From NCBI GenBank assembly GCA_964574335.1, contig CAZNNH010000009.1:11634-75633 (forward strand): a stretch of DNA of 64,000 nucleotides, read 5' to 3'. The notes under the pieces were generated by a model. That model did no database searches. It had not been told where the DNA came from and saw only the letters and a program-made list of their open reading frames with translations. The translations under genes were made by a program, and so were the position numbers. Below are positions 22,196 to 57,306 of the stretch, one piece after another. Positions within the stretch are counted from its first letter, which is position 1. Each line of letters starts with the position of its first letter. The stretch comes from an uncultured Acidobacteriota bacterium (lineage in GTDB: Bacteria; Acidobacteriota; Vicinamibacteria; Fen-336).

Positions 22196-22353
22196 GCTGC
22201 CTCCTGATTCGGGCCTGCCCGAGCCGCAAGCGTACCATCCAAGAGCGCGCCGTCCACGCGTTGCCCAGGCCAGCCCCGGCGCTCGAGGACGGTCCGGGCG
22301 CTGTCTGTGTCCCGATCGGCGTATCATCAGCGGCGACAGGGGAGACGAAGCGG

Positions 22354-37028: not shown

Positions 37029-37320
37029 ATGATAGGCCACAAGGTGGGCGGCGGGCCAGCGGTGCCGCTATCATGTGGCGTGCCCTACGTCTACATCCTG
37101 CGCTGCGGCGACGGCTCCCTGTACACGGGGGCCACCAAGGACCTGGCCGCCCGCCTGCGCCAGCACCAGGCCGGGCGGGCCTCGCGCTACACCCGTGCCC
37201 ATCAGCCGGTGACCCTGGTCTGGTCGCGCCGGCTTCGTACCTGGAGCCAGTCGCTGCGCGAGGAGCACCGCATCAAGCGGCTGCGTCGCGCCGGCAAGGA
37301 GGCCCTGGTCGCGTCCGGAG
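37029..37320 (+). CDS. GIY-YIG nuclease family (UPF0213/YhbQ-like) domain; no stop codon before downstream TonB-dependent receptor (approximate 3' boundary)
   Basis: VPYVYILRCGDGSLYTGATKDLAARLRQHQAG...HRIKRLRRAGKEALV matches YhbQ-like GIY-YIG proteins (~95 aa), but the frame reads through into the receptor ORF ending 39569. Confidence 0.5.
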
Positions 37321-37370
37321 CGGACGGCGGCGTCGGTCGGCGCGCCCCAGCTCGGCGTGACGGGGCCGGG

Positions 37371-39569
37371 GTGCGGAGCGCGGTGCGAGGCCTGGCGGGC
37401 CTTCTGGTCGGTCTGCTGGTGGCCACGCCGGGACTGGCTTCGGTCCTCGAGGGCCGGGTCTCGTTCTCCGACGGTCGCGCCGTCGCCCGAGCCCGGGTGT
37501 CGATCCTCGGCCGGACCGGCAGCGTGCTCACGGACGAGCAGGGGCGCTTCTCCTGGTCACCGCTGCCGCAGCCTCCGTTCGAGATGATGGTGGCGCTGGC
37601 CGGCGGCGGCTACCTCAAGCCGGTCCGGATCGAGGCCTTGCCCGAGGGTCCCCCCCTCGAGATCGTCGTGGAGCCGACGATCGACGAGAACGTGACCGTC
37701 ACCGGGGGGCTCGCCCCGCACCTCCTACCTCCTCCCGCCGCCGGCACCAACTTGCTCACCGCGCGGGAGATCGGGGCGCGCGCGCCGGTGCACCTGACCC
37801 AGGCGCTCGAGAACGTGGCCGGCGTCGCCAGCATCTCGGAAGGCCAGGCCGCGGTCCCGGCGATCCGGGGTTTCGCCCACGGACGCACCCTGATCCTGCT
37901 CGACGGGACTCGGGTCACGGCCGAGCGCCGGGTGGGGCCGAGCGCGACCTTCCTCGACCCGGTGACCCTGGAGAGCGTCGAGGTGGCCCGCGGACCGGGG
38001 TCGGTCGCCTACGGCTCGGACGCCTTCGGTGGCGTGATCGATGCCCGCACCCGCCGTACCGCCCCGGGCTCCGGGACCGCCGGGCGCTTCGTGGGCGCCC
38101 TGGGTGCCGGGGTGCCTCAGGAGCGAGCGGCGATCGAGGTCGGGCACGGCTTCGCGAGCGGCGGCCTCATCTTCCAGGGCCACTATCGCAACCTCGACGA
38201 CTACACGAGCCCCGGGGGGGAGGTCCCCAACTCCGGCTCCCGCGACTTCGGGGGGCGGGCCCGCCTCGACCGTCGGATCGGCGCCGGGACCCTGAGCCTC
38301 GCCTGGCAGAGCGACCTGGGCCGGGACATCGAGCGGCCTCGCACCAACTCGACCACCACCCGCTTCTTCTATCCCAGCGAGGACTCGCACCGGCTGGTGG
38401 CGGACTGGAGGAGCGGCCCCGTCTCTGGCTTCAGCCAGCTCGGCGCCAGCGCCTTCCTGGGCAGCTACGCGATCGTCACCGACCAGGACCGCTTCGCGAC
38501 CGAGACCGCGCCACGCGGGGTGGAGCGGGCCGACGTCTCGGCCCGGGACTTTCACCTCCGCGGCTTCGCGGCCCGGACGGTGGGCCCGGCCCGCCTGGAG
38601 CTGGGCCTCGACGTGAACGGGCGCTTCGGCCTTCGGGCCCTCGACATCGACCGGGTCTACGACGCCGCCGGCACTCTCGCCGATGAGGAGGTCAGCGTCT
38701 CGATCGACGACGCCAGGCGCACCGACTACGCCGCCTTCTCCAGCGTCGAGGCGGCGGCCGGGAGTCGCGTTACCCTCCACGGCGGGCTGCGTCTGGACCA
38801 CGTGGTCACCCTCAACGTGGGGGGCTACTTCGGCGACCGATCGACTGGCCATGACGCGGCGTCGGGCTTCGCCGCGATCGCGGTTCTGCTGGCACGCGGG
38901 CTCTCGGCGACCGCCCAGGCTTCGAGCGGCTTCCGCGACCCGCTGCTCTCGGACCGCTACTACCGAGGGCCCACCGGCCGCGGCTTCATCACCGGCAACC
39001 CCGACCTCGATCCCGAGCGGAGCTGGCAGCTCGACCTGGCGCTGCGCTACGTCGCCGCCAGGTGGAGGGCGGCAGCCCACGCCTTCGACTACCGGGTCGA
39101 GGGCCTGATCGAGCGCTACGAGACGGAGCCCGACTACTTCTACTTCAGGAACCGGGGCCGGGCCCGAATGCGCGGCGTCGAGCTGGAGGTCCAGGTGGTG
39201 GCGCCGGGTGAGGTCTCCGTCGAGTTTTCCGGGCACCTGATCCGAGGCCACGCAGAGGAGGACGGTTCCCCCCTCGACGACGTTCCGCCGCCGACCCTGA
39301 CGCTCAGGCTGAGCCGCGACTTCGGGAGGGGCTTCGTGCTGGCGCGGGGGGCGCTCTACGCCGAAGACGATCGGCCGGGGCCCACCGAGCAGGCCCGGCC
39401 CGGCTACGGCCTGCTCGACCTGACCCTGGGTCTTCGTGTCGGCGAGCGGCTCGAGCTGCGTCTGCTCGGCCGCAACCTCCTCGACCACGCCTACCTGGTG
39501 AGCCCCGATCGGCGGGCGGTGCTGGCCCCCGGCCGCTCGCTGCTGGTGACGACGGTCCTGGCCTTCTGA
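37371..39569 (+). CDS. TonB-dependent receptor with CarboxypepD_reg-like N-terminal domain
   Basis: GTG 37371 gives signal peptide VRSAVRGLAGLLVGLLVATPGLASV, then LEGRVSFSDGRAVARARVSILGRTGSVLTDEQGRFSW (CarboxypepD_reg-like). Plug-like region ISEGQAAVPAIRGF...ILLDGTRV, beta-barrel. C-terminus ends ...SLLVTTVLAF with terminal F. Confidence 0.75.
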   Translation: MRSAVRGLAGLLVGLLVATPGLASVLEGRVSFSDGRAVARARVSILGRTGSVLTDEQGRFSWSPLPQPPFEMMVALAGGGYLKPVRIEALPEGPPLEIVVEPTIDENVTVTGGLAPHLLPPPAAGTNLLTAREIGARAPVHLTQALENVAGVASISEGQAAVPAIRGFAHGRTLILLDGTRVTAERRVGPSATFLDPVTLESVEVARGPGSVAYGSDAFGGVIDARTRRTAPGSGTAGRFVGALGAGVPQERAAIEVGHGFASGGLIFQGHYRNLDDYTSPGGEVPNSGSRDFGGRARLDRRIGAGTLSLAWQSDLGRDIERPRTNSTTTRFFYPSEDSHRLVADWRSGPVSGFSQLGASAFLGSYAIVTDQDRFATETAPRGVERADVSARDFHLRGFAARTVGPARLELGLDVNGRFGLRALDIDRVYDAAGTLADEEVSVSIDDARRTDYAAFSSVEAAAGSRVTLHGGLRLDHVVTLNVGGYFGDRSTGHDAASGFAAIAVLLARGLSATAQASSGFRDPLLSDRYYRGPTGRGFITGNPDLDPERSWQLDLALRYVAARWRAAAHAFDYRVEGLIERYETEPDYFYFRNRGRARMRGVELEVQVVAPGEVSVEFSGHLIRGHAEEDGSPLDDVPPPTLTLRLSRDFGRGFVLARGALYAEDDRPGPTEQARPGYGLLDLTLGLRVGERLELRLLGRNLLDHAYLVSPDRRAVLAPGRSLLVTTVLAF

Positions 39570-40559: not shown

Positions 40560-42311
40560 ATGAAGAAGCCCACCAGGCCAGCGGCGTTCGCCTCCGTCCT
40601 CGTGGCGGCGGTGGCGTGGAGCGGCGGGTGCGGGGCCCCCGCGCCGCCGGGCGCCCCCTCTCGAGCCCCACACGCCAGCGCCGGATCGAGCAGCGCCTAC
40701 CTCTCGGGTGATGCCGACCTCGACGGGCTGCAGCTCTACTTCTGGACGGCGCTGGAGGCGAACCGGAAGCAGCTCGACGGCCGCACCGGGACCGTGGTGG
40801 GCTTCGGCGCCGGGGACCTGTACCCGCAGATCTGGCTGCGGGACAGCGCCACCCTGGTCCCCCTCACCCGCTACCACTACCCGCGCGACTACCTGACCCG
40901 TTGGCTGGAGGAGCACCTGGCCCACCAGCGTGAGAGCGGTGCGCTGTTCGACTGGGTGGCGGCGGGGGAGCCCTCCGATTTCCCATACGCGCCCCACGCC
41001 GAGGAGGTGTTTCGCTCGGGAGCGGTGGTGCTGACGGCGGACAAGAACACCTGCGAGGCCGACCAGGAGACGAGCGCCGTGCTGGCGGCGGGCCACGTGC
41101 TCGACGCGCTGGGCGACCCCGCCTGGTTGAAGCAGCCGGTGGTGGGCCGCCCGCTGGTCGACCGGCTCGACCAGGCGCTGTGGTTCGTGCGGCGCGAGCG
41201 ACTCGACCCGGAGCGAGGTCTGCTGGTCAACGCGCTGACGGCCGACTGGGGCGACGTCAGCCCGACCTACGCCGACCAGCGCGCCATCTACCTCGACGAC
41301 GCCACGCCGCTGGTGGCCGGGCTCTACACCAACGCCCTCTACCTCGGCGCCTGCCGAGTGATGTCGGACTTGCAGGGCGCGGTGGGGGCCACGGAGCGCG
41401 CGAAGGGCTGGGAGACGGAGGCGGCGCGCGTGCGCGGGGCCATGGAACGGGCCCTGTGGCAGGAGGACCGGGGATACTACCGCATCCACGTCCTGGTCGA
41501 GCCGCGCGGCGCCCCCCCCGTGGAGGCGGGGCGGCTAGCGGTGGGCGGACACGCCGTCGCCCTGCTGGCCGGTCTGCCCTCGGCCGAGCGTGCGCTGCGG
41601 GTGATCCAGGTGCTGGAGGAGCGCCATCGGCGGCTGGGCCTGACCATCCTCTCGGGAACGGTCCTGCCTCCGTATCCGACCGGCTTCTTCCGGCACCCGA
41701 TCCTGAGGGAGCCGTGGACGTACCAGAACGGTGGCCAGTGGGACTGGTTCGCCGGACGGCTGCTGCTGGCCATGTTCGAGGCGGGGCGGGCGGAGACGGC
41801 CTGCGAGCAACTGGTGGCGATCGCGAGACGGGTGCGCCAAAGCGGCGGCCTCTACGAGTGGTACACGCGGGAGGGGGCGGGCCGGGGCAGCCCCCGCTAT
41901 GCGGGCAGCGCCGGTGCCCTCGGACAGGCCGTCTACGAAGGGCTGTTCGGCGTCCGTCTGCGTGCCGACGGGCTCAGGCTTCGGGTCCGGCTGGGGGCGA
42001 GAAGCGGCTCGGTGCGCCTCCAGGAGCCGGCCTCGGGGCGCAGCGTCTACTACGAGCACCATGTCGGACCGGACCGCATCGAGATGCGGTGGCGCACCCG
42101 GCCCGCGGCAAGGGAGCTGGCTCTGCGGCTGCCGGAGGGGAGGCGCGCGGTCGCGCTGCGCGTGGCCGGCCAGCCGCGCGAGGTGGTCACCGAGACCGTG
42201 GGCCGCGACCGCTACCTGCTGGTGGGAGGCGTGGCCGCGGAAGGCGTTCTGGAGGTGGAGCTGCTCGGCCCGGGCTCGGGACCACAGGCGGTCCCGGGAG
42301 GCTCGAGGTAG
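40560..42311 (+). CDS. Lipoprotein, six-hairpin (alpha/alpha)6 glycoside hydrolase-like (GH15/GH63/debranching-enzyme-like)
   Basis: Lipobox VAWSGGC; IWLRDSA motif (W-x-RD of glucoamylase-like six-hairpin glycosidases), GGQWDWFAGRLLLAMFEAG; family assignment tentative. Confidence 0.5.
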   Translation: MKKPTRPAAFASVLVAAVAWSGGCGAPAPPGAPSRAPHASAGSSSAYLSGDADLDGLQLYFWTALEANRKQLDGRTGTVVGFGAGDLYPQIWLRDSATLVPLTRYHYPRDYLTRWLEEHLAHQRESGALFDWVAAGEPSDFPYAPHAEEVFRSGAVVLTADKNTCEADQETSAVLAAGHVLDALGDPAWLKQPVVGRPLVDRLDQALWFVRRERLDPERGLLVNALTADWGDVSPTYADQRAIYLDDATPLVAGLYTNALYLGACRVMSDLQGAVGATERAKGWETEAARVRGAMERALWQEDRGYYRIHVLVEPRGAPPVEAGRLAVGGHAVALLAGLPSAERALRVIQVLEERHRRLGLTILSGTVLPPYPTGFFRHPILREPWTYQNGGQWDWFAGRLLLAMFEAGRAETACEQLVAIARRVRQSGGLYEWYTREGAGRGSPRYAGSAGALGQAVYEGLFGVRLRADGLRLRVRLGARSGSVRLQEPASGRSVYYEHHVGPDRIEMRWRTRPAARELALRLPEGRRAVALRVAGQPREVVTETVGRDRYLLVGGVAAEGVLEVELLGPGSGPQAVPGGSR

Positions 42312-42513: not shown

Positions 42514-44883
42514 TCAGTCCCGGGCGAGGGCTCGCAAACGTGCCGCGAGCCTCGCCTGGGCCTCGGGGGGCAGCCGATCCGCCGCCTCCTGGTAGAGTCC
42601 GCGGGCCTCGGCCCGCCGCCCTTCCTCCTCGTAGATGGCGCCGAGCAGGAGGTAGGCGTCGCCGTAGGACGGGTGGCGCTCGATCAGGTGGCGCAGGGTG
42701 CCGGCGGCGGCCTTCCTCTCGCCGCTCCGGCGTTGGAAGAAGCCCAGGGTGTAGGCGTACCGGGGCTCGTCGGGAGCCAACGCATGCGCCTTCCGGCACA
42801 GCTTCACCGCCGCCTGCAAGTCCCGATCGGCGAGCAGGACGCCGAGATTGTAGGTGGCGGTGGCGTTCTCGGGGTCCGACTCGAGGGCCGTCCGGAGTGC
42901 CGAGACCGCCTCCTCCGGCCGGCCGAGCTCGCCCAGGAGCAACCCGAGATTGAGGTTGGCGGCGACGTTCTTCGGCTCGAGGGCGAGGGCGCGGCGCAGG
43001 GCACGCTCGGCGCGGTCGTTGTGGCCGAGCTGGCTGTGGGCCAGCGAAACGTTGACGAGGGGCGCCAGAAAGTCGGGACGCAGCTTGCTGGCGGTCTCGA
43101 AGCTGGCCACGGCGCCGGGGATGTCGCCGCGCTGTAGCTTCAGGTTGCCCAGGTTGTAGTGGGCGGTCGGGTCGTCGGGACGGCTCTCGAGCGCGGCCTC
43201 GGCCTCGGCCAGGGCGGCGGCCACCGCCGGCCGATCCGCCGGGCTCAGGTGCTCGTCGGGGAGGCTGGCCAGGGCGGCGGCGGCACGAACCCGTACCAGC
43301 CGGTAGTCGTCACGGGTGGCCGCTACCAGGGCCGCGAGGGCCGCTGGGTCGAGGTGGTCCCCGAGGGCCTCGGCCGCCGCCCCACGAACCAGAGGTGAGA
43401 CGTCCTGGATCGCCTGCAGCAGCGCCGCCCGCTTCTTTTCGGACTCGTGAGGGCGCAGCAGGCGGATCAGCGAAACGGCCAGCACCTCGTCACGCCCCTC
43501 GCCGACGATCTCGGCCAGCATCTCGCCCTCGCGCGCGAAGTTCCCCTTTCGCGCCGCCTCGATCAGACGGCCACGCCGCAGCACCTGGTCCGAGTAGTCG
43601 CTGTCGCCGAACCAGCGGCGCGTCCACCGCTCCGCCCAGGCCGGGGACTGGTCCTGGTGGCAGGTGTTGCAGGCGTTGGGAGAGCCGAAAGCCTCGGTGG
43701 CGGCGGGGACCGGCGGCAGCATCGAGTGGTCGTGGCGGACCATCCTGGCGAAAGACGTCTCTGGCATGTGGCAGGCGATGCAGCGGCCACCGGGGCCGTC
43801 GGCCCGGTGGTGGCTGTGCTTCGTCACCCGCGCCACCCGTTCGGCGTGGCAGGGCAGGCAGGCCTCGTTGGCCTTGTCCCCAGAGTGCCGGTCGCGTCCG
43901 CTCGAAGTGTGGCAGTGCATGCAGTCGAGCCGCTCCGCCTTCACGCACGGGCTGCGTCGCCACTGGGTGAAGGTGTAGTTCTCGCCCAGGTCGCGACCGT
44001 CCGGGTGGAAGTCGCGGCTCTCCAGCGCCACCAAGTCGAAGTAGTCGAAGAAGCGCCCGCCAGGGGGGAAGCTCGGCGCCACCGGCATCAGCTTGGCGTG
44101 GCAGGACGAGCAGGAGTCGTTGGCCTGCTCCACGGTAAAGGCCTTGGTGCTGACGAGGTGGAGCTCAGCCGGGGGCGTGCCTCCCTGGGCGGCGCGGAAG
44201 ACCCGCACGTGCTCCGACGCCGGGCCGTGGCAGGTCTCACAGTTGATGCCCGGCTCCCGCCAGGTGGTCCGGTAGCCGTCGGTGGCGAGATCGTAGCTGG
44301 TCTCGAGCTGGCTGACGTGGCAACCGTGGCAGGAGGTGTTGAAGGTCAGCGCCGGGTCGGTCCAGTCCACTGCCTCGTCGGTCACGTCCGAGAAGTGGCG
44401 CATGGCGCTCTTGGTGGTGTCATACCACTCCTTGCGGCGGACGTCGAACGCGATCGGCAGCACCTGCAGGCGTCCCCGCTCGGCCGGTGTGAGCAGGTAG
44501 AAGACGTTCTTGCCGCCGAGGACGTGCGCTACCTCGTGTCGCCGCGGCGGCGTCTCGCCCACCGTCTCGACGACGCCGCGATCTCCCTCGAGGACGAAGC
44601 GCCAGCGGACCCCGGCGATGGCCACCTCCTGCCCGAGGGGGGCGAGCTGGTCCCGGGCCAGCGCGGCGGTGAAGGCCTGCATCGCACGACCGTGGTGGGA
44701 GGGCTCCCACAGCTCGTAGAACCGGGCGTGGCAATCGCGACAGCTTCCCGAGCCCGAGAAGCCGGCGTCGGCCTCGGTGGCAGCCGGCGATGGGGGCAGC
44801 GCGGACGAGGAGCAGGCCGCCATCGCCCCCAGGGCGGCGAGCAGGCCCAACCTGGGCGTCCACCGGGAGCCCCGACTGCTCAT
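42514..44883 (-). CDS. Octaheme c-type cytochrome lipoprotein fused to HEAT-like and TPR repeat domains
   Basis: Signal/lipobox LGAMAACSSS; eight CxxCH motifs (CRDCH, CHGCH, CETCH, CSSCH, CMHCH, CLPCH, CIACH, CNTCH). HEAT-like repeats follow (LVRGAAAEALGDHLDPAALAALV..VRVRAAAALASL), then ~8 TPR repeats (AHYNLGNLKLQRGDIPGAVASFETASKLRPDF...). Confidence 0.8.
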   Translation of the reverse strand: MSSRGSRWTPRLGLLAALGAMAACSSSALPPSPAATEADAGFSGSGSCRDCHARFYELWEPSHHGRAMQAFTAALARDQLAPLGQEVAIAGVRWRFVLEGDRGVVETVGETPPRRHEVAHVLGGKNVFYLLTPAERGRLQVLPIAFDVRRKEWYDTTKSAMRHFSDVTDEAVDWTDPALTFNTSCHGCHVSQLETSYDLATDGYRTTWREPGINCETCHGPASEHVRVFRAAQGGTPPAELHLVSTKAFTVEQANDSCSSCHAKLMPVAPSFPPGGRFFDYFDLVALESRDFHPDGRDLGENYTFTQWRRSPCVKAERLDCMHCHTSSGRDRHSGDKANEACLPCHAERVARVTKHSHHRADGPGGRCIACHMPETSFARMVRHDHSMLPPVPAATEAFGSPNACNTCHQDQSPAWAERWTRRWFGDSDYSDQVLRRGRLIEAARKGNFAREGEMLAEIVGEGRDEVLAVSLIRLLRPHESEKKRAALLQAIQDVSPLVRGAAAEALGDHLDPAALAALVAATRDDYRLVRVRAAAALASLPDEHLSPADRPAVAAALAEAEAALESRPDDPTAHYNLGNLKLQRGDIPGAVASFETASKLRPDFLAPLVNVSLAHSQLGHNDRAERALRRALALEPKNVAANLNLGLLLGELGRPEEAVSALRTALESDPENATATYNLGVLLADRDLQAAVKLCRKAHALAPDEPRYAYTLGFFQRRSGERKAAAGTLRHLIERHPSYGDAYLLLGAIYEEEGRRAEARGLYQEAADRLPPEAQARLAARLRALARD

Positions 44884-44930: not shown

Positions 44931-46349
44931 ATGGCCGCGAGCAGCCTCCTCGCCCTGATCGACGACATCGCGACCATCCTGGACGACGTCGCGCTCCTCA
45001 CCAAGATCGCGGCCCAGAAGAGCGCGGCGGTGGCCGACGACGTGGCCCTCTTGACCAAGGTCGCCGCCAAGAAGACGGCCGGCGTGCTGGGGGACGACCT
45101 GGCCCTCAATGCCGAGCAGGTGAGCGGGGTCAAGGCGGACCGGGAGCTGCCCGTCGTCTTCGCGGTCTTCAAGGGCTCCCTCGTCAACAAGGCGATCCTG
45201 GTCCCCGCCGCGCTCGTCATCAGCGCCGTGGCGCCGTGGGCGGTGATCCCGCTGTTGATGATCGGCGGCCTGTACCTGTGCTTCGAGGGCTTCGAGAAGG
45301 TGGCGCACGGCTTGCTGCACGGCCGGGCCGAGGACCAGGAACGTCGCGCCGAGCTGACCGCGGCGCTGCTGGCTCCCGGCGCCGACCTGGCCCGGGTGGA
45401 GCGAGACAAGATCAAGGGGGCGGTCCGCACCGACTTCGTCCTCTCCGCCGAGATCATCGTGATCACGCTGGGCACGGTGGCCACCGCGCCGTTCGTACAG
45501 CGGGTCGCCGTGCTGACCGGCGTCGCGGTCCTGATGACGGTGGGCGTGTACGGCGTGGTCGCCGCCATCGTCAAGCTCGACGACCTGGGCCTCTACCTGA
45601 GCCGGGGCGGCGGCGAGGCGCGCCTTTCGCGTCTCAGGCGCCGCCTGGGGGACGGGATTCTCGGCGCCGCGCCCTTCTTGATGCGCCTGCTCTCCATCGC
45701 CGGCACCGTTGCCATGTTCCTGGTCGGCGGCGGGATCCTGGTGCACGGCATCCCGCCCCTGCACCACCTCGCGGTGGACCTCACCGGTGGCGGCGGCGTG
45801 ATGGCGGGCCTGGGCTCGATGCTGGTCAACACCCTGGCGGGTGTGGCCGCAGGGGGCCTGGCGCTGGCGGCTGTCGCGGCCGGCCGGCGGCTGTCGGGCC
45901 GCAAGGGTCGGCCGGAGGCCGCCTCAGCGGAGCAGGCGGCCGACGCTGACGTAGACGCCGAACGCGCCCCGGTTGCCCAGGCTGGCACCCGCGAAGATCG
46001 GCCCCAGAAAGGTGTCGAGGGCCACGCCGGTGGTGAGGCATCCCTCGAGGCGCGCGGCGGAGGCGTGGTCGAAGGCGCTGCCGAGCTCGACCTGGGCCGC
46101 CAGGCGGACCGGTCCGCCGAGAAGGTCGGGGAGCCGTCCGACCGACAGCAGGTACCCGAGGTGAGCGTAGACGAAGTGCCGGCCCCGGAAGGTGTCGGGG
46201 GCGAAGGCGCCCAGCCGGAACGGTCCACCCAGGGTGAAGCGGTAGATGGGGGGCGGCGACTCGCGCAAGGCGGTGCCCCCGCGGAGGGTGGCGAAGAGGC
46301 TGTCCGAGCGGCGGACGGAGGTGGCGGCCACCATGGTTCCGGCCAGTAG
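44931..46349 (+). CDS. DUF808 (YedI-like) inner-membrane protein with extended low-complexity C-terminus
   Basis: MAASSLLALIDDIATILDDVALLTKIAAQKSAAVADDVALLTKVAAKKTAGVLGDDLALNAEQV closely follows the YedI/DUF808 N-terminus. First in-frame stop only at 46349, so the C-terminal ~140 codons overlap the convergent patatin gene. Confidence 0.65.
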   Translation: MAASSLLALIDDIATILDDVALLTKIAAQKSAAVADDVALLTKVAAKKTAGVLGDDLALNAEQVSGVKADRELPVVFAVFKGSLVNKAILVPAALVISAVAPWAVIPLLMIGGLYLCFEGFEKVAHGLLHGRAEDQERRAELTAALLAPGADLARVERDKIKGAVRTDFVLSAEIIVITLGTVATAPFVQRVAVLTGVAVLMTVGVYGVVAAIVKLDDLGLYLSRGGGEARLSRLRRRLGDGILGAAPFLMRLLSIAGTVAMFLVGGGILVHGIPPLHHLAVDLTGGGGVMAGLGSMLVNTLAGVAAGGLALAAVAAGRRLSGRKGRPEAASAEQAADADVDAERAPVAQAGTREDRPQKGVEGHAGGEASLEARGGGVVEGAAELDLGRQADRSAEKVGEPSDRQQVPEVSVDEVPAPEGVGGEGAQPERSTQGEAVDGGRRLAQGGAPAEGGEEAVRAADGGGGHHGSGQ

Positions 46350-48149
46350 CGGAAAGGCGCGCTCCGCCTCGGGCGCGCGAGTGTAGAAGGACGCCTGTGC
46401 CTCCAGGCGGAAGCCGGCCTCGGGGAGGATCGGCGTCCGCATCTTGTCGATGTCCAGACGGGCCAGGAAGCGGTCCTCGCGTCCGTGCGGCTCTCCCAGC
46501 ACCGGGTTGCCGACCCGGACGTCGGCGTCGACGTGGCTGGTCTCGAAGCCGGCCCGGAGCTCGAAGTGGCGACCCGGCCCGATCCCGACGTCGACTCCGG
46601 CGCCGGTGCGCCGGGTCCGGTAGGTGGCTACCAGGGCGTCGTCGTGGAAGAGGTTCTGGGAGGTCTCATCGAAGAAGACACGGGGCGCCAGGAAGAAGCG
46701 TGGCCGCCCCACCGGGCGGTACAGCTCGGTGGCCACTCCCCGGCTCGACCCGGCCGCCAGGTCGACCCGCAGCTCGGATCCGACTCCGACCAGATCCGTC
46801 ACCGTGACCCGCGCGCCGAGATCGATGACCACGGCGCCCGGCTCGGTGGCGAGGTCCAGGGAGAAGTCGACGAAGGGCGGCGCGTGGGCCTTCTCCTGGA
46901 ACCGGACCAGCAGGCCCGGCCTTCCCCCGGCCTCGGTCGCCTCGTAGGTGGCGCTCTCGTAGCGCCCCGAGCCGATGATGCGGGTGAGCCTGTCCTCGAG
47001 GCGATCGGCGTCGAGGGGCACGGTCAGGGAGCGGGTCAGCGACGGGCCGAGGGCCTCGGCTTGCGGCGAGGGGATGCCCTCGACGCTCACGAAGACGGGC
47101 TCCTCGAGCGGCGCCGGGCGACGGGCGCGACGGGCGGCGAGGTGCTGCAGCCAGGCGGCCTGGTCGAGGCGCAGCGGCAGCAGTTGCTGGCTGGCCGCCG
47201 CCGCCGCCTGGTAGCCGCGCCGGATCAGCTCGGCCGCACGTCGGAAATCCAGGGAGTCGAAACCCTCGAGCTGCGGCTCGAGCACCAGGTCGGCGTCCTT
47301 CAGGGTGCGCCGGGTCGCCGAGTCCATCATCACCACCACCGAGCGGTTGACCAGGCCGGTCATCGAGAGGCTGGTGGGCTGGTGCAGGTTCTCGCCCACC
47401 GACACCGCCACCACCACGTCGGCGCCCATGGCGCGGGCCACGTCGGCCGGGACGTTCTTCAACACGCCGCCATCCACCAGCAGCCGACCCTGGTAGCGGG
47501 ACGGCGCGAACACACCTGGGATGGCCATGGTGGCGCGCAGCGCCTGGACCAGCGAGCCCTCGTGGAGCGCCAGCGCCTCGCCCCGCTCGATGTCCACGGC
47601 CACGCATCGGAAGGGGATGGGAAGGTCGTCGAACGACTCCCGGGCGGCATGGGGGAAGGCGATGCGGCTGAGGAGGAGACCGATCTGGTGGCCGGAGCTG
47701 AGGCCGCTGGGCAGCGAGAGGCCGCCGCGCAGCCCGAGCTCGACGTCCACCGGGTACTGGCGCCGGTCCTGCTTGCGGCGGAAGGTCCGCTGCGGGTACG
47801 GGACGTCGCTCTCGAAAAGCCTGTCCCAGTCGGCCTCCAGCAGCAGGTCACGGATCTCGGCCGCCGACATCCCGGTGGCGTAGCCGCCGCCGATCAGCCC
47901 GCCCAGGCTGGTGCCCGCCACGTAGTCCACGGGGATCCGGTTCTCTTCCAGCCAGAGCAGCACGCCGGCGTGAGCGATGGCGCGCGCGGCGCCCCCACCG
48001 AGGGCCAGGCCCACCCGTGGCCGCGACGCGGGATCGGCGAGCACGCGCTGCCCGCCCGGCAACAGGAAGACCGCCAGCGTGGCCGCGACGACGGCCAGCG
48101 CGGGTCGTCGCCTCGGCTCGCCCTGGCTCATGGGCGTCCACGTTAGCAC
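45924..48149 (-). CDS. Patatin-like phospholipase with C-terminal Omp85-type beta-barrel (PlpD-like, type Vd autotransporter)
   Basis: Signal peptide; GLALGGGAARAIAHAGVL (GxGxxG oxyanion), GTSLG (GxSxG nucleophile), catalytic DGG; C-terminal ~350 aa with alternating beta-strand pattern and FTLGGPFRLGAFAPDTFRG Omp85-like motif. Confidence 0.8.
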   Translation of the reverse strand: MLTWTPMSQGEPRRRPALAVVAATLAVFLLPGGQRVLADPASRPRVGLALGGGAARAIAHAGVLLWLEENRIPVDYVAGTSLGGLIGGGYATGMSAAEIRDLLLEADWDRLFESDVPYPQRTFRRKQDRRQYPVDVELGLRGGLSLPSGLSSGHQIGLLLSRIAFPHAARESFDDLPIPFRCVAVDIERGEALALHEGSLVQALRATMAIPGVFAPSRYQGRLLVDGGVLKNVPADVARAMGADVVVAVSVGENLHQPTSLSMTGLVNRSVVVMMDSATRRTLKDADLVLEPQLEGFDSLDFRRAAELIRRGYQAAAAASQQLLPLRLDQAAWLQHLAARRARRPAPLEEPVFVSVEGIPSPQAEALGPSLTRSLTVPLDADRLEDRLTRIIGSGRYESATYEATEAGGRPGLLVRFQEKAHAPPFVDFSLDLATEPGAVVIDLGARVTVTDLVGVGSELRVDLAAGSSRGVATELYRPVGRPRFFLAPRVFFDETSQNLFHDDALVATYRTRRTGAGVDVGIGPGRHFELRAGFETSHVDADVRVGNPVLGEPHGREDRFLARLDIDKMRTPILPEAGFRLEAQASFYTRAPEAERAFPLLAGTMVAATSVRRSDSLFATLRGGTALRESPPPIYRFTLGGPFRLGAFAPDTFRGRHFVYAHLGYLLSVGRLPDLLGGPVRLAAQVELGSAFDHASAARLEGCLTTGVALDTFLGPIFAGASLGNRGAFGVYVSVGRLLR

Positions 48150-48238
48150 AGGGGTCGCGGCCGGATGGGCTGCTATACTCGCGCCGTCTGTCGCCTCTCG
48201 TCACGCGACTACCGTCGCCCTTCGTCGGAGGAGGAACC

Positions 48239-49552
48239 ATGACCGCCAAAGCCTCGAGCCGCCGGGACTTCGTCAAGGCCCTCGCCGTCGGTGCCGTGCT
48301 GGCGCCCACCGCCAAGAGCTACGCGCGCATCCTGGGCGCCAACGATCGGATCTCGGTGGGCATGATCGGGATGGGACGGATGTCCCGGGGCCATCTGCAG
48401 AACCTGCTACTGGAGCCGGACGTCGCCCTCACCGCGCTGTGCGACGTGTTCGAGCCCAACCTGAGCTGGGCCAAGGCCCAGGTTCCGGATGCCGAGACCC
48501 ATGGCGACTTCCGGAGGGTGCTCGACCGCAAGGACGTCGACGCGGTGGTGGTCGGGACCCCCGACCACTGGCACGCGCTGGCCACGGTCATGGCCTGCGC
48601 AGCCGGCAAGGACGTGTACGTCGAGAAGCCCACCGCGGTCGGCGTGGTCGAGAGCCGCAAGATGGTCGAGGCGGCGCGCCGGCACCAGCGGATCGTCCAG
48701 GTGGGGACCCAGCAGCGCTCCGACCCCCACTTCCGCTACGCGGCCGAGCTGGTGAAGGGTGGCGCGCTGGGCGAGGTCACCTTCGTCCGCACCTGGAACT
48801 ACGGCAACGAATACCCGAAAGGGATCGGCAAGCCCGAAGACGGCCCGCCGCCGGCCGGCCTGGACTGGGACCTGTGGCTCGGGCCGGCCCCCGAGGTCCC
48901 GTTCAACGAAAACCGATTCGGCGTGTCGCTCGACGCGCAGGGCGAGTACCAGCGATGGGCCAGCTTCCGCTGGTTCTGGGACTACGCCGGCGGGATGATG
49001 ACGGACTGGGGGGTCCACCTGCTCGACATCGTGCAGTGGGCGATGGGCGTAGACCACCCGCAGTCGGCGACGGCGATGGGGGGCAAGTTCCAGCTCCAGG
49101 ACAACCGACAGACCCCCGACACGTTGCTGGCCACCTTCCAGTACCCCGGCTTCGTGTGCACCTACGAGAACCGGAGCTGCAACGGCCGGCCGCTCGAGGG
49201 GCACGGCTACGGGATCATGTTCCACGGCACCCGCGCCACGATGTTCGTGGACCGCGGCGGCTTCGAGATCACCCCCGAAAGCGGCAGCGACGCGGTACCG
49301 ACCCAGGCCCAGAGCCTCCCCGGCAGCCACCACCGGCACATCCGCAACTTCCTCGACTGTGTCAAGAGCCGGCAGGCCCCGGTCAGCGACATCGAGGTCG
49401 GCCACCGTTCCAGCCGCACCGCGATGCTCGGCAACATCGCCTACCGCACCGGACGCCTCATCCAGTGGGACGGCGAGAAGGAGACGATCGTGGGCGACGC
49501 CGAGGCCGCCAGGATGTTGGACATCCCGTACCGGGAGCCCTGGAAGCTCTAG
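48239..49552 (+). CDS. Gfo/Idh/MocA family oxidoreductase, TAT-secreted
   Basis: Twin-arginine signal SRRDFVKALAVGAVLAP; Rossmann ISVGMIGMGRMSRGHL, EKP motif DVYVEKP, GGxxxDxGxH motif GGMMTDWGVH. Start coordinate taken from ORF-track frame (+/-1 nt uncertainty). Confidence 0.8.
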   Translation: MTAKASSRRDFVKALAVGAVLAPTAKSYARILGANDRISVGMIGMGRMSRGHLQNLLLEPDVALTALCDVFEPNLSWAKAQVPDAETHGDFRRVLDRKDVDAVVVGTPDHWHALATVMACAAGKDVYVEKPTAVGVVESRKMVEAARRHQRIVQVGTQQRSDPHFRYAAELVKGGALGEVTFVRTWNYGNEYPKGIGKPEDGPPPAGLDWDLWLGPAPEVPFNENRFGVSLDAQGEYQRWASFRWFWDYAGGMMTDWGVHLLDIVQWAMGVDHPQSATAMGGKFQLQDNRQTPDTLLATFQYPGFVCTYENRSCNGRPLEGHGYGIMFHGTRATMFVDRGGFEITPESGSDAVPTQAQSLPGSHHRHIRNFLDCVKSRQAPVSDIEVGHRSSRTAMLGNIAYRTGRLIQWDGEKETIVGDAEAARMLDIPYREPWKL

Positions 49553-50457: not shown

Positions 50458-51364
50458 TCAAATGCCCTTGTAGACCAGCACCGGTCGGAGCCGCCGGACG
50501 ACGCGGGCGAGGTCGCTCTGCGCCCGCAGCACACACCTCAGGTCCTTGTAGGCGGACGGCGCCTCCTCGCGCAATGCCCGTGCCAGGCGATGGTCGAAGA
50601 AGATGCCCCGCGACTCGCGCGCCAACCTGGCCACGGAGATCTCGCGTCGGGCGGCCGAGCGCGAGAGTTGCCGGCCCGCGCCGTGGGCGCAGGATCCCAG
50701 CGATGCCGGGTTCCCCAGACCGACGACGTGGACGCTGAACGTGCCCATCGAGCCCGGCACCAGCCCGATCACACCGGCTCCCGCCGGGATCGCCCCTTTG
50801 CGGTGGACCCACAGCGTTTCGCTGCCGTGGGTCTCGCGACGCACGTGGTTGTGGTGGCAGCTCTCGAAGGTGTCCCAGAGCGGAGTCGCCTCTGCCACGT
50901 GGCCGAGCACCTCGGCGACCGCCTCCACCATCCGCCGGCGGCTCGCGTCGGCGTAGGCGAGGGCCCAGTCGACATCAGCCAGGTAGGATCGGCCGAGATC
51001 GCTCTCGGCCTCCAGGAAGCGCAGGCCGTGCCTCCCCACGCGGCAGCGACGCAGGTGGTGGGCCCGAATCGCCGGGCCGAGCCCACGGGAGCCGCTGTGC
51101 AGCATCAGCCAGAGCCGCCGCCGCGGCCGCCGCTTGGACGTCGAAGGCGATGGCCGCCATGCCGCAGCCGATATCGCCTCCCACCGCGCTGGGATAGAGC
51201 GTTCCGGATGTCGCGAGGACCGCGCCGACGCACACGTCCTCCGCCAGGTGGGCGTCCGGCATCAGCGCCACGTGACGCACGTTCTCGCTCTGTGCGAGCC
51301 GTTGGGCTGAGGCTCGGACTCCTTGCGGCAACGGCCCGTCGTGCCAGACGCGAAGGTCACCCAC
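50458..51364 (-). pseudogene. rtcB: RNA-splicing ligase RtcB: internally deleted (~110 aa missing between GCGM and HSGSRG) and frameshifted
   Basis: N-fragment (GTG 51364, AGGAGA RBS 6 nt upstream) encodes VALMPDAHLAEDVCVGAVLATSG...VGGDIGCGM. After a frame change at ~51105 the C-fragment encodes MLHSGSRGLG...CHHNHV...GSMGT...SCAHGAGR...VYKGI. The segment containing the conserved GNHF metal-ligand region is absent. Confidence 0.6.
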
Positions 51365-55470: not shown

Positions 55471-57195
55471 CTACTCGATGTAGCCCAGCGCCCTGAGGGC
55501 CTCGTCCAGATCCCCCGTGGCCTCGGCGTCCGAGCCGCGGGACCGGGCACGCACCCGGCTCAGGTAGGCGACCACTCGCCGTCGGCCGCGCTCGAGGGCG
55601 TCCTTGTCCTCGAGGGGCGAGCGCTCCTGCGGGTCCTTCGACAGGTCGAACACCTGCTCGCGCAGGATGTGAGGCGGTATGCTCTCCCCGGGCTCCACAT
55701 CGGCAATGTACTTCAGCGGTCCTTCCCGGACCGCCACCCGGTCCACCGTGATCGAGTCCTTCAGCCGAGGGTTGGGCTTGGTCTCGGCGAAGAGGGGGAC
55801 CGTTGCCATTTGGCCGCCGCGCAAGAGCGGCAAGAGGCTGCGCCCCTGGAAGGAGGTCGGGATCGGGATCCCCCACACATCGAGCACGGTTGGGGCAAGG
55901 TCCACGAGCGAGACCGGTTGGGAGAACCGCCCACCCGGTAGGCCGGGGACCCGGAACGCCAGCGGCACACGGAGCATCTCCTGGAAGAGGGTCTTGGAGT
56001 GGAACCACCCGCCGTGGTCCTGGAACTCCTCGCCGTGGTCCGCCGAGTACACGACCAGGGCCTGGTCGTAGAGGCCGCGAGCCCGGAGCGCCTCGACCAG
56101 GCGACGGATCCGGTCGTCCGTGTAGGCGATCTCCGCGTCGTAGAGCGCCTCGGCTCGCACCGGGTCCGTGAGCTCCTCCGGCGTCGTGATCGGCCCCTTG
56201 TAGCCGGGGTCGAACCGGCGAGCGAAGGGCTCCGGAGGTGCGTAGGGAAAGTGGGCGTCCACGTAGTGCACGAAGATGACGAGGTCGTCGGCGGGCCACT
56301 CGTCGAGCGAGGCCAGGATCTTGCGGTTCACCTCGTCCGCCGAGTGATCCACGGAGGCGTACTTCAGGATGTCGAATCCCCTGAACCCGGACGCGCCCTG
56401 GATCAGGGCGTTGGCCGAGACGCCGAGGACCGTGAAGCCCGCGCTGCCCAGCAGGTCGAAGAGCTGGGGGACGCTCTGGTCGCACCGCCGGTAGGCCGAG
56501 TCGGCACCGTGGAACCCGGGGAAGCGCGCCGTGAACGCGGAGCCGAACGACGGCAGCGTCCAGGAGGCGGGCGCCACGACGTTCTCGAAGACCGCCCAGC
56601 CTTTCGCCAGCTCGTCGACCTCGGGAGTGGTGGGGCGGGCGTAGCCGTAGAGGCTCAGGTGGTCGGTGCGGACCGCATCCTGGGAGATCCAGATCAGCAC
56701 CCGCCGAGAACGGTGCTCCCTGGTCGGGGGCACCACCCGGGGCGAGCCGACCAGGACCGTAGGGTGGTTCTCGCTCGCGTCCCGGCTTCTCGGTGAGACG
56801 CTGATCTCGATCCGGGTCGGGCCGGACATCGCGAGCGGTACCGAGACCGCCTTCCAGTTCAGCCTCTCGCGGGAGAACATGTCCTTCCGAAAGAGGGTCT
56901 GCCCGTCGGCGGTGACCTCGAATCGCAGGTGCCCGGGAACCGTGCCCGGCGTGGTCCAGTGAAAGTCGAGGCGGCTGCCGTGGGGAACGTCCACCTCGAC
57001 CGAGCGCTTCTCGCCGCCGGCGACCTCGATGGCCGGTAGCTCGACCCGGTCCAGCATGTGGGGCTCCGCTGGACCGAGACCCGGCCAGAGGCGCTGCGGA
57101 CGTGGGGGGGCCTCGCCGCAGGAGGTCAACAAGCCGAGGGCGACGAGAGACGTGACCAGAAGGCCCCGCCGCGCGCGCGTCGTGGCGTTGGTCAT
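55471..57195 (-). CDS. Sulfatase-like (alkaline phosphatase superfamily) lipoprotein
   Basis: Lipobox LGLLTSCGEA; RVLIWISQDAVRTDHLSLYGYARPTTPEVDELA metal-binding region; C-terminal sulfatase fold motifs DHGEEF, HSKTLFQE. The position expected for the CxPxR formylglycine motif reads W-T-L-P-S-F (alignment uncertain). Confidence 0.7.
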   Translation of the reverse strand: MTNATTRARRGLLVTSLVALGLLTSCGEAPPRPQRLWPGLGPAEPHMLDRVELPAIEVAGGEKRSVEVDVPHGSRLDFHWTTPGTVPGHLRFEVTADGQTLFRKDMFSRERLNWKAVSVPLAMSGPTRIEISVSPRSRDASENHPTVLVGSPRVVPPTREHRSRRVLIWISQDAVRTDHLSLYGYARPTTPEVDELAKGWAVFENVVAPASWTLPSFGSAFTARFPGFHGADSAYRRCDQSVPQLFDLLGSAGFTVLGVSANALIQGASGFRGFDILKYASVDHSADEVNRKILASLDEWPADDLVIFVHYVDAHFPYAPPEPFARRFDPGYKGPITTPEELTDPVRAEALYDAEIAYTDDRIRRLVEALRARGLYDQALVVYSADHGEEFQDHGGWFHSKTLFQEMLRVPLAFRVPGLPGGRFSQPVSLVDLAPTVLDVWGIPIPTSFQGRSLLPLLRGGQMATVPLFAETKPNPRLKDSITVDRVAVREGPLKYIADVEPGESIPPHILREQVFDLSKDPQERSPLEDKDALERGRRRVVAYLSRVRARSRGSDAEATGDLDEALRALGYIE

Positions 57196-57306
57196 GAGCG
57201 CGATCGCCTCGCGCAGCTCTGCGGCCAGCGGGCTCTTGTCGGTTCCCATAGAGGCGGCAACGGTAGCGCATGGGCGCCCCGGAGGGCAACCGGCCATCAG
57301 CCCGTC

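Follow-up and report, generated by a model that had tools for sequence, protein, structure and literature searches.

A widespread family of predicted exported octaheme cytochromes c with a HEAT/TPR repeat tail and recurrent sulfatase neighbours, represented in an uncultured Acidobacteriota bacterium

The nitrogen, sulfur, and iron cycles depend at key steps on multiheme cytochromes of the NrfA/c554/HAO superfamily, each characterised branch of which has a distinct chemistry. The window analysed here, that is, the whole stretch of 64 kb, carries on its minus strand a real gene whose product, as read from its sequence, is an exported eight-heme cytochrome fused to a protein-binding repeat tail. 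The cytochrome domain is assigned by profile and motif alignment to the c554/MccA/OcwA branch of the NrfA/HAO superfamily. In this protein, the C-terminal helix bundle of the relatives is predicted to give way to an alpha-solenoid of HEAT and TPR repeats. The gene itself is an ordinary stand-alone orthologue of a very large, strongly conserved, and uncharacterised family. The explanation that best fits these features, to which we give about an even chance, is that of an exported, probably lipid-anchored periplasmic octaheme cytochrome whose solenoid tail holds a client, possibly a sulfatase.

Gene, export signal, heme motifs and repeat tail

The gene is a single uninterrupted open reading frame of 789 aa with an ATG start, and there is no internal stop codon within 42514..44883 on the minus strand. 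An earlier note on this DNA had described one 789-aa gene, and since the frame is uninterrupted, a split by an unnoticed stop is ruled out. The GC3 of the frame (0.91) matches that of the other genes of the window. The NCBI call for the gene (P0001, 778 aa) starts at the TTG of codon 12, a start that would drop the charged n-region of the signal peptide. Scans for promoter and terminator consensus sequences gave no match. The features of the gene and its product are as follows.

42514..44883, minus strand: whole gene, octaheme cytochrome c with HEAT and TPR repeats, 789 aa; stop codon at 42514-42516
44812..44883, minus strand: putative signal peptide and lipobox, aa 1-24, MSSRGSRWTPRLGLLAALGAMAA followed by C (sequence inspection and family alignment)
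43549..44754, minus strand: octaheme cytochrome domain, predicted c554/MccA/OcwA type, aa 44-445 (profile, conservation, AF2)
44728..44742, minus strand: heme motif 1, CRDCH, aa 48-52 (aligned to heme I of c554 and heme 1 of OcwA)
44419..44628, minus strand: beta-rich insert between hemes 1 and 2, aa 86-155 (confident in both AF2 runs)
44317..44331, minus strand: heme motif 2, CHGCH, aa 185-189, in the invariant block TFNTSCxxCHVSQL (regex, conservation, profile alignment)
44227..44241, minus strand: heme motif 3, CETCH, aa 215-219, followed by the invariant H225 (regex, conservation, profile alignment)
44098..44112, minus strand: heme motif 4, CSSCH, aa 258-262 (regex, profile alignment)
43945..44013, minus strand: invariant loop DF(Y/H)PDGRDLGENYT...W..SPC, aa 291-313, including the invariant free Cys313 (conservation)
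43909..43923, minus strand: heme motif 5, CMHCH, aa 321-325 (aligned to OcwA heme 6)
43846..43860, minus strand: heme motif 6, CLPCH, aa 342-346 (aligned to OcwA heme 7)
43768..43782, minus strand: heme motif 7, CIACH, aa 368-372 (counterpart of OcwA heme 8, in a part where the C-terminal region of NrfA also aligns)
43657..43671, minus strand: heme motif 8, CNTCH, aa 405-409 (counterpart of OcwA heme 9, in a part where the C-terminal region of NrfA also aligns)
43273..43530, minus strand: HEAT-like repeats, aa 452-537, six helices or about three repeats (Pfam, AF2)
42517..43233, minus strand: TPR solenoid, aa 551-789, with a lead helix, six TPRs at 572-775, and a cap helix (Pfam, AF2, Foldseek)

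The N-terminus, MSSRGSRWTPRLGLLAALGAMAA followed by C24, comprises a charged n-region, a hydrophobic core, and a lipobox-like AMAAC. In a check by eye, GAMAA before C24 fits the PROSITE-style lipobox pattern [LVI..][ASTVI][GAS]C after the h-region, and it is plausible from these residues that the protein is a lipoprotein. The lipobox is not kept across the family, other members of which carry SPase-I-type signals. Judged in this way, the signal peptide and lipobox-like AMAAC support the earlier description of a lipoprotein in the form of a likely lipoprotein or exported protein.

Exactly eight CxxCH motifs (C48, C185, C215, C258, C321, C342, C368, and C405) span aa 48-409, against about 0.04 expected by chance from the domain's own Cys and His content. 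The reported eight motifs in the N-terminal ~430 aa are confirmed, and the low expectation speaks against their origin by chance. Multiple CxxCH motifs behind a signal peptide place the product among the multiheme c-type cytochromes, heme attachment itself being predicted. A regex search of the protein returned neither CxxCK nor CX15CH, and no further CxxCH occurs in the other five frames or elsewhere in the 64-kb window. Heme coordination was deduced from conservation counts. Seven non-motif His positions are invariant or near-invariant for eight hemes (H64, H163, H225, H281/H293, H356, H359, and H386); invariant Met, Lys, and Cys residues are also potential ligands, and an invariant Met (M68, M381) could act as the eighth.

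In the repeat tail, the Pfam scan that the earlier note had proposed as a check returned HEAT_2 (33.5 bits at aa 465-539; cutoff 27.7) and many TPR families over aa ~560-780, with TPR_16 reaching 79.5 bits (cutoff 32.7). The scores above gathering, together with a solenoid of helical hairpins in the AF2 model, identify the tail as HEAT and TPR. The earlier reading of HEAT-like repeats and ~8 TPR units holds for both repeat types, but its count is a slight overcount because the model gives six TPRs and a cap helix. The full-length AF2 model reached a pLDDT of 86.9 (above 90 in the repeat helix pairs) and a pTM of 0.85, values that suggest a heme domain and a solenoid fixed in position relative to each other. 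The cytochrome domain modelled alone with 20 sequences had a pLDDT of 47.5 and was confident for the beta-rich insert only; this low-confidence model was kept out of the fold search. Foldseek matched the tail to the TPR domain of OGT and to designed consensus TPR (CTPR) proteins. The Asn at TPR position 6 is invariant in TPR2-4 (N611, N645, and N679) and present in at least 90% of the sequences in TPR1 (N577). An Asn at this position is common in consensus TPRs too, and the TPR and HEAT matches are generic.

Relation to characterised cytochromes

The best profile match in the PDB is OcwA, the nonaheme surface reductase of Thermincola potens (6i5b, 2.6e-12), followed by c554 (1bvb, 1.8e-6) and OmhA (6qvm, 7e-6). 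Motif alignment maps hemes 1-4 to hemes 1-4 of OcwA and c554, and hemes 5-8 to hemes 6-9 of OcwA. The spacings of the last four motifs are 21/26/37 aa in the window protein as compared with 22/48/34 in OcwA, and the His between the last two motifs is conserved. Both proteins carry an extra domain between hemes 1 and 2, and in both heme 2 lies in a c554-like CxxCHV..L block. In OcwA as well as in MccA, an additional beta-sheet domain occupies the sequence position that corresponds to the insert at aa 86-155 (PMC6703420). Nevertheless, the overall identity to OcwA is low, and the differences are substantial. OcwA has nine hemes and the window protein eight, the latter being devoid of a counterpart of OcwA heme 5, the NrfA-type active site. 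Moreover, the host of the window protein is a diderm, the protein's signal is of the lipoprotein or Sec type, and in place of the short C-terminal helix bundle of OcwA the protein has a HEAT/TPR solenoid of 340 aa.

The N-terminal tetraheme module can be aligned with hemes I-IV of cytochrome c554 of Nitrosomonas europaea (1BVB/1FT5), as the 1bvb and 6i5b profile matches demonstrate. The alignment covers the CxxCHGP motif of heme 3 and the His after motif 1, H64, which we take to be the equivalent of His27 of c554 (numbering counted from the c554 sequence). In addition, heme 2 of the window protein is homologous to heme 2 of c554 and OcwA, which is the active-site heme of these proteins and has an open coordination position. 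However, c554 is a tetraheme electron carrier of 211 aa, whereas the window protein has a 137-aa gap with the beta-rich domain between hemes 1 and 2, four more hemes, and a repeat tail.

The octaheme sulfite reductase MccA of Wolinella (4RKM) would have an equal heme complement when compared via OcwA (hemes 1-4 and 6-9, with heme 2 as the active site), and it shares the extra beta-sheet domain. The Cu site of MccA is a pair of Cu-binding Cys residues, whereas the window protein offers one invariant free Cys (C313). In addition, MccA has no TPR tail, its heme 8 CX15CH motif is absent here, and the 4rkm match extends over 29 residues only with a non-significant E of 0.68. Membership in the MccA group was therefore rejected for want of CX15CH and of a significant sequence match. 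With the pentaheme nitrite reductase NrfA, the last two hemes and the following helix align (E 1e-5 to 1e-3 across the NrfA entries). NrfA membership was likewise rejected, as the catalytic CxxCK motif is missing and the likeness is confined to those two hemes.

Two further comparisons concern the tail and the possible mode of action. The tail matches Pfam TPR_CcmH_CycH (7e-18), but matches to a dozen generic TPR families are at least as good, and we rejected a cytochrome-maturation function on this ground. In the Nrf and Ccm systems, the TPR protein is a separate polypeptide serving heme attachment. MauG, a diheme c-type enzyme that matures methylamine dehydrogenase using H2O2 or O2, is a functional analogue only. 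It offers a precedent for a c-type heme protein in the periplasm that forms a complex with another exported enzyme and, by electron transfer within that complex, modifies one of the enzyme's residues by oxidation, which is the kind of reaction considered below for sulfatases. In sequence and fold it is unrelated, and it has two hemes and no repeat tail.

Family distribution and genomic neighbourhood

The combination of a multiheme cytochrome with repeat tails had been described as uncommon, which the database searches do not bear out. The cytochrome domain returned at least 2,468 matches, and nearly all of the best 120 were proteins of 720-790 aa with the cytochrome, HEAT, and TPR layout. A profile search yielded 1,637 clusters at 50% identity (E<=1e-30), and the carriers comprise at least 547 species genomes in GTDB, from more than 10 phyla, as well as 472 or more contigs from metagenomes. 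By record names, these phyla include Planctomycetota, Verrucomicrobiota, Gemmatimonadota, and Acidobacteriota, which are known mostly as organotrophs. The layout was found in 162 of 163 ORFs from related loci and eight CxxCH motifs in 159 of them, and even divergent members keep the architecture. The cytochrome domain is the best conserved part, with a mean pairwise identity of 63% (~60% across phyla) compared with 51% for HEAT, 47% for TPR, and 19% for the signal region. Longer members, inspected for Rosetta-stone fusions, contained only extra TPRs and one DTW domain, the latter being taken as a gene-call fusion. The family is annotated only as "tetratricopeptide repeat protein", except that NCBI names one homologue nitrite reductase; some homologues also reach weak matches to Pfam Cytochrom_C552 (NrfA). 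No paper on this family or on a cytochrome-sulfatase link was found in a literature search in which most subscription journals lay outside coverage, so that absence is not proven.

The window gene stands alone between one convergent and one divergent gene. The statement that it has no adjacent cytochrome-biogenesis or porin-cytochrome genes is correct, given that its neighbours were checked and all six frames of the 64 kb hold no other CxxCH. There is no formylglycine-type sulfatase near or adjacent to the gene either; the nearest gene of the sulfatase superfamily (55471-57297) is 10.6 kb away and lacks the C/S-x-P-x-R motif.

The one gene that recurs as a neighbour in the related loci encodes a Cys-type sulfatase. 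Of the 146 loci in which the neighbourhood can be observed, 51 have it in the directly adjacent position, in most cases on the strand of the cytochrome gene. Among the genome loci, 25 of 77 have a sulfatase no more than 400 nt away, and 22 of these sulfatases share the strand of the cytochrome gene, from which they are separated by 3-330 nt; the metagenome loci repeat this adjacency (26/69). By group, the counts are 7/22 in Desulfobacterota, 2/4 in Gemmatimonadota, 8/29 in PVC, and 6/11 in other phyla. PVC genomes are rich in sulfatases, and therefore some chance adjacency is expected there. Outside PVC, sulfatases occur at 0.095 per kb in the adjacent position compared with 0.034 per kb at 2-8 kb, a background taken from within the loci rather than from the genome-wide sulfatase density. 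The neighbouring sulfatases carry CxPxR and are diverse (median identity 28%); few have a twin-arginine motif, and most are Sec-exported. About two thirds of the related loci have no adjacent sulfatase. To our knowledge, a recurrent operon link between a cytochrome and a formylglycine-dependent sulfatase matches no described system.

In the ~160 related loci, no porin, Ccm, MtrA/B-like, second cytochrome, or quinol dehydrogenase gene recurs, and the 85 clustered loci include no family of the MtrC/OmcA-type conduit partners (porin plus periplasmic decaheme). Genes for FGE, anSME, and NrfH are not recurrent neighbours of the related loci, and the FGE and anSME families are absent from the 25 most frequent neighbour families at sulfatase-adjacent loci. 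The window protein itself has no FGE-sulfatase or radical-SAM/SPASM domain among the 25 best of 33 Pfam families at E<=1. The small ORFs that came up in a search for conserved ones beside family genes were all antisense shadows of sulfatase genes, and no partner that would donate or accept electrons was identified.

Possible functions of the family

In the favoured explanation of a client-holding periplasmic cytochrome, the eight hemes would form one electron wire, and the solenoid would hold a protein or extended-peptide client against the heme domain. Heme 2 would be the likely reactive centre: its homologue in c554, OcwA, and MccA is the active-site heme with open coordination, and the block around it is the most conserved of the protein. 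Partial support for a reactive heme comes from the seven conserved non-motif His for eight hemes and from the invariant Cys313 and PDGRDLGEN loop. A docking role of the tail is favoured by the fixed arrangement in the AF2 model and by the conserved Asn of TPR1-4. Sulfatases would be the most likely class of client, since a Cys-type, formylglycine-dependent sulfatase is the only recurrent operon partner in the family. A more specific proposal, which we regard as quite unlikely, is that the family acts as a periplasmic heme-based partner enzyme of Cys-type sulfatases and provides O2-independent extracytoplasmic maturation distinct from FGE and the radical-SAM anSMEs. In this proposal, a sulfatase just exported by Sec would be caught by its still unfolded N-terminal region in the HEAT/TPR groove. 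An open heme 2, perhaps together with Cys313, would convert the cysteine of CxPxR oxidatively to formylglycine, or else activate or repair the sulfatase by another redox reaction, and two electrons would exit via the eight-heme wire.

The cytochrome may instead be a small-molecule oxidoreductase, an alternative that is rather unlikely. Heme 2 would reduce or oxidise an inorganic nitrogen or sulfur compound (nitrite, hydroxylamine, NO, sulfite, tetrathionate, or thiosulfate). The tail would have no function beyond oligomerisation or docking to the electron donor, and sulfatase genes would lie nearby because both share a niche of sulfated organic matter and not because the two proteins are physical partners. 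Reactivity with nitrite or NO is common to all characterised members of the NrfA/HAO superfamily, and in the c554/MccA/OcwA clade the N-terminal module contains a penta-coordinate heme (PMC9250108; PMC6703420). The invariance of the heme 2 block, of the free Cys313, and of the acidic loop, and the enzyme-like conservation of 63% across phyla, are in keeping with such catalysis, as are the weak Cytochrom_C552 matches and the single nitrite reductase name. Yet neither CxxCK nor CX15CH is present, one free Cys stands where MccA has its Cu-site pair, and the MccA match is not significant. Moreover, no NrfH/CymA-type or NrfBCD-type donor gene recurs nearby, and a 340-aa solenoid conserved at ~50% identity in all members would be left unexplained.

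It is decidedly improbable that the protein is a periplasmic electron hub that takes electrons from, or supplies them to, exported cofactor-containing oxidoreductases, for example Gfo/Idh/MocA sugar dehydrogenases with a Tat signal, and connects these to the respiratory chain, with the tail as the docking site. A twin-arginine Gfo/Idh/MocA oxidoreductase does occur within 8 kb in 9 of 85 loci, including the window (48017-49552, 3.1 kb upstream), and in some loci ThuA and xylose-isomerase-like TIM-barrel genes lie alongside. However, this association is much weaker than that with sulfatases and seldom involves immediate adjacency, Gfo/Idh/MocA oxidoreductases are abundant in the phyla concerned, and pure shuttle cytochromes are, in our experience, rarely 60% identical across phyla. 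The earlier note had proposed that the tail docks a lipoprotein cytochrome to an outer-membrane or periplasmic partner for extracellular or periplasmic electron transfer. Docking to some partner is still plausible; the outer-membrane or extracellular conduit is very improbable, since the neighbour that recurs in the ~160 loci is a hydrolase family, the sulfatases, and a porin, an MtrA/MtrB-like gene, and a second multiheme gene are absent from the window and not recurrent in the loci. The conduit is favoured by the lipobox, by the closest solved relatives in sequence, OcwA and OmhA, which are cell-surface terminal reductases of Gram-positive metal reducers, and by a Pfam match to MtrC/MtrF domain II/IV (41.8 bits, aa 166-265). 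But that match spans two heme motifs only, the family does not keep the lipobox, and it is common in phyla without known metal respiration.

The branch described here brings together a presence in hundreds of species and more than 10 phyla, enzyme-like conservation, and a fused solenoid of the peptide-binding type. In soils, sediments, and oceans, the rate at which sulfated polysaccharides and organosulfates are turned over is under the control of sulfatases. A functional sulfatase link would imply that sulfatase biology includes an extracytoplasmic redox step; without such a link, the family would still constitute a large unexplored group of likely periplasmic redox enzymes.

Structure and heme class of the fused cytochrome

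The gene under study is listed here, and residue numbers refer to its product.

42514-44883, minus strand: 789-aa octaheme cytochrome c with a HEAT and TPR tail

Translation of this ORF gives 789 uninterrupted codons from an ATG start with zero internal stops, and exactly eight CxxCH motifs (C48, C185, C215, C258, C321, C342, C368 and C405); an earlier note had read a 789-aa product with eight such motifs from the sequence alone. Given how much Cys and His the heme region contains, about 0.04 such motifs would arise by chance, and none occurs in other frames anywhere in the 64-kb window. The GC3 of the ORF (0.91) is similar to that of the surrounding genes. At the N-terminus, MSSRGSRWTPRLGLLAALGAMAA/C, a charged n-region is combined with a hydrophobic core, and the sequence AMAAC resembles a lipobox. 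The database copy of the protein (P0001, NCBI call, 778 aa) begins at the TTG of codon 12; the ATG start is preferred because the TTG start would delete the charged n-region. The expected repeats are matched in Pfam by HEAT_2 at aa 465-539 and, across aa ~560-780, by a dozen TPR families; the heme region gives only weak multiheme matches (MtrC/MtrF domain II/IV, Cytochrome_C7 and Cytochrome_C554). An AF2 model with 20 sequences was confident only for the beta-rich insert that separates heme 1 from heme 2, whereas 105 full-length sequences yielded a mean pLDDT of 86.9 and a pTM of 0.85.

Features of the AF2 model, 105 sequences
aa 86-155: beta-rich insert
around the heme motifs: mostly short helices
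aa 414-445: two helices
aa 452-537: six HEAT-like helices
aa 572-775: six TPRs, plus a cap helix

In a single-sequence search, 6i5b was the only significant solved relative. A profile built from alignment A2 (20 family members) was further compared with the PDB.

Profile matches to solved structures
6i5b: E 2.6e-12
cytochrome c554 (1bvb): E 1.8e-6
OmhA (6qvm): E 7e-6
several NrfA entries: E 1e-5 to 1e-3, last two hemes only
MccA (4rkm): E 0.68, not significant

6I5B is OcwA, a nonaheme surface reductase of Thermincola, with hemes 1-4 superimposing on c554 and hemes 5-9 on NrfA; the octaheme sulfite reductase MccA superimposes on OcwA hemes 1-4 plus 6-9 and shares with it an extra beta-sheet domain, and the distal position is open at OcwA hemes 2 and 5 (PMC6703420). 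A later phylogeny places c554, MccA, OcwA and OmhA in one clade, whose penta-coordinate heme lies in the N-terminal module (PMC9250108). The profile alignment matches motifs 1-4 of the window protein to motifs 1-4 of OcwA/c554, and its motifs 5-8 to OcwA motifs 6-9. Motifs 5-8 are spaced by 21/26/37 residues, compared with 22/48/34 in OcwA. Thus, nothing in the window protein corresponds to OcwA heme 5, and its heme complement is the one known from MccA. Despite this likeness, identity with MccA is ruled out, as the protein has no CX15CH, no significant match to 4rkm and only one invariant free cysteine. NrfA is likewise ruled out by the lack of CxxCK. By its sequence, the window protein is an exported c-type cytochrome with eight hemes, which belongs to the c554/MccA/OcwA clade and continues into a HEAT/TPR solenoid.

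A very large and conserved family

The earlier note called the architecture uncommon, a view that does not survive a search with aa 1-449 alone, which returned at least 2,468 significant proteins. Among the best 120 of these, nearly all have 720-790 aa and the same HEAT and TPR Pfam families as the window protein, usually under the database name "tetratricopeptide repeat protein". A profile search over 1.84 billion 50%-identity cluster representatives matched 7,903 at E<=1e-3, 4,213 at E<=1e-10 and 1,637 at E<=1e-30; full-length representatives mostly have 700-800 aa, and longer variants differ simply by extra TPRs. Relatives are encoded in at least 547 GTDB species genomes, whose record titles include Planctomycetota, Verrucomicrobiota, Lentisphaerae, Desulfobacterota, Gemmatimonadota and Acidobacteriota (including Aminicenantes), as well as Sumerlaeota, Hydrogenedentes, Armatimonadota, Caldithrix, Caldisericaceae and Dissulfurispiraceae. 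The metagenome contigs with a relative number at least 472. Eight CxxCH motifs are present in 159 of the 163 related loci with an ORF found, complete ORFs there having about 750-830 aa. Conservation is unusually high, with mean pairwise identities of 63% for the cytochrome domain, 51% for HEAT, 47% for TPR and 19% for the signal region. Some members, including the window protein, carry a lipobox and others a classical signal peptide; therefore export is family-wide and lipid anchoring is not.

Across 105 aligned family sequences, all eight heme motifs are invariant or nearly so, together with the non-motif histidines H64, H163, H225, H356, H359 and H386, the block T-F-N-T-S-C-x-x-C-H-V-S-Q-L around heme 2, the loop D-F-Y-P-D-G-R-D-L-G-E-N-Y-T and C-H-T-S-S-G-R after heme 5. 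Furthermore, a free cysteine outside CxxCH, Cys313 (S-P-C; window 43945-43947), lies between hemes 4 and 5 in 105/105 sequences and may act in catalysis or as a ligand of a heme or a metal. With H281, kept in at least 90% of the sequences, the conserved non-motif histidines number seven against eight hemes. Such a count fits one heme of open coordination, which by homology with c554/OcwA would be heme 2; the invariant methionines M68 and M381 are a possible alternative source of ligands and weaken the argument. Judged from the sequences, heme 2 may be a reactive, possibly open-coordination centre.

At window 43996-44043 the protein carries Tyr281 and His293, in contrast to His281 and Tyr293 in at least 90% of the family; P0002, which is 84% identical, keeps the consensus. 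The apparent exchange resembles a compensatory swap involving a possible heme ligand, and residues 281 and 293 may thus lie close together in the fold.

Gene neighbourhood in the window and the family

Genes of the window around the cytochrome gene
21913-28011, plus strand: 2,032-aa bacterial alpha-2-macroglobulin-like protein, adjoining the next
28016-29338, minus strand: 440-aa protein, CBM96 carbohydrate-binding module and collagen triple-helix repeats
37029-39569, plus strand: 846-aa ORF, GIY-YIG nuclease (aa 19-88) with CarboxypepD_reg, Plug and TonB-dependent receptor domains; the call probably starts too early and joins two genes, though it could be an odd fusion
40560-42311: glycoside-hydrolase-like gene, convergent, 202-nt gap from the cytochrome gene
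from about 44931: DUF808 gene, divergent
45924-48149, minus strand: patatin-like phospholipase with a long C-terminal extension, upstream of the cytochrome gene
48017-49552, plus strand: Gfo/Idh/MocA oxidoreductase
50458-51105, minus strand: RtcB ORF of only 215 aa, matching profile positions 184-426 of 426; this frame lacks the N-terminal part, which suggests a frameshift, pseudogene or split gene
55471-57297, minus strand: 608-aa product, sole sulfatase-superfamily gene (PF00884), 10.6 kb from the cytochrome gene

With convergent and divergent flanks, the cytochrome gene looks monocistronic. No Ccm, Res, porin-cytochrome or quinol dehydrogenase gene was found in the rest of the window, so the earlier note's observation on missing biogenesis and porin-cytochrome neighbours holds. 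The product of 55471-57297 has S-W-T-L-P-S in place of C/S-x-P-x-R at the expected nucleophile site and therefore is not a formylglycine enzyme; this is taken to mean that it is probably a Thr-nucleophile superfamily member rather than a true sulfatase. The related locus L005 (1-2929) likewise has two patatin-like phospholipase copies upstream of its cytochrome gene, a recurrence that could be coincidence or remnant synteny.

Every ORF up to 8 kb from the cytochrome gene was clustered over 85 loci, and the single large neighbour family was the sulfatases, present in 36-37 loci. A sulfatase HMM places one within 400 nt in 25 of the 77 loci with enough flank; 22 of these 25 are on the cytochrome strand, on either side, with smallest gaps of 3-30 nt.

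Genome loci with an adjacent sulfatase
PVC bacteria: 8/29
Desulfobacterota: 7/22
Gemmatimonadota: 2/4
Acidobacteriota: 2/11
others: 6/11

Metagenome contigs, 80 in number and overlapping the genome set by at least one duplicate locus (L150 and L072), served as an additional sample; they have an adjacent sulfatase in 26/69, giving 51/146 combined (about 35%, at least one duplicate included). Two of five loci fetched via individual homologues lie inside sulfatase clusters. As a local control, non-PVC loci have 0.095 sulfatases per kb adjoining the cytochrome gene and 0.034 per kb at a distance of 2-8 kb. The family is frequently operonic with Cys-type sulfatases. The neighbouring enzymes carry C-x-P/A-x-R and share a median identity of 28%, a diversity that excludes one orthologous partner; a crude scan suggests a hydrophobic signal in most and a twin-arginine motif in few. 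The 25 commonest families in these loci include neither FGE nor any radical-SAM maturase, and small ORFs conserved beside the cytochrome gene are absent from related loci.

Weaker recurrent neighbours include response regulators, a periplasmic HAD-like hydrolase of ~350 aa in 9 loci (L010, L015, L018, L027, L045, L060, L067, L076 and L085; mostly Desulfobacterota, sometimes plus a sulfatase) and Gfo/Idh/MocA oxidoreductases within 8 kb in 9/85 loci (the window, L004, L012, L019, L025, L031, L036, L048 and L063). The Gfo/Idh/MocA representative (L004) has a twin-arginine signal, and this recurrence may reflect a second, weaker functional link or a shared niche.

Proposed working and place of the family

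The eight hemes would form a single wire with heme 2 as its reactive centre, and the HEAT/TPR solenoid, in place of the C-terminal helix bundle of relatives, would bind a protein or extended peptide. Such binding is proposed because TPR position 6 is always Asn in TPR2-4 and nearly always in TPR1, and the TPR region best matches the peptide-binding TPR domain of O-GlcNAc transferase (OGT). We take this residue to resemble the OGT asparagine ladder; Asn there is also common in generic TPRs. The adjoining sulfatases would be the best candidate clients. It is unlikely, though conceivable, that the cytochrome oxidizes their active-site cysteine to formylglycine outside the cytoplasm and independently of oxygen. 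MauG, a c-type heme enzyme maturing another periplasmic enzyme, offers a precedent. An ordinary small-molecule N or S oxidoreductase, using the tail for docking or oligomerisation, is doubtful yet a possible account. It is rather improbable that the protein is a periplasmic electron hub serving exported dehydrogenases. The extracellular electron-transfer conduit put forward in the earlier note is very improbable, as no supporting partner genes recur in the family, about 160 related loci being covered.

In the literature covered, which is incomplete, no published account was found of the MccA-like heme complement, the HEAT/TPR tail or the sulfatase association in this family. The window gene is an ordinary member at a locus not itself exceptional. 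Within a superfamily already known, the family stands out as a distinct variant, with MccA-like hemes but without MccA hallmarks, an obligatory HEAT/TPR tail and an association with sulfatases.
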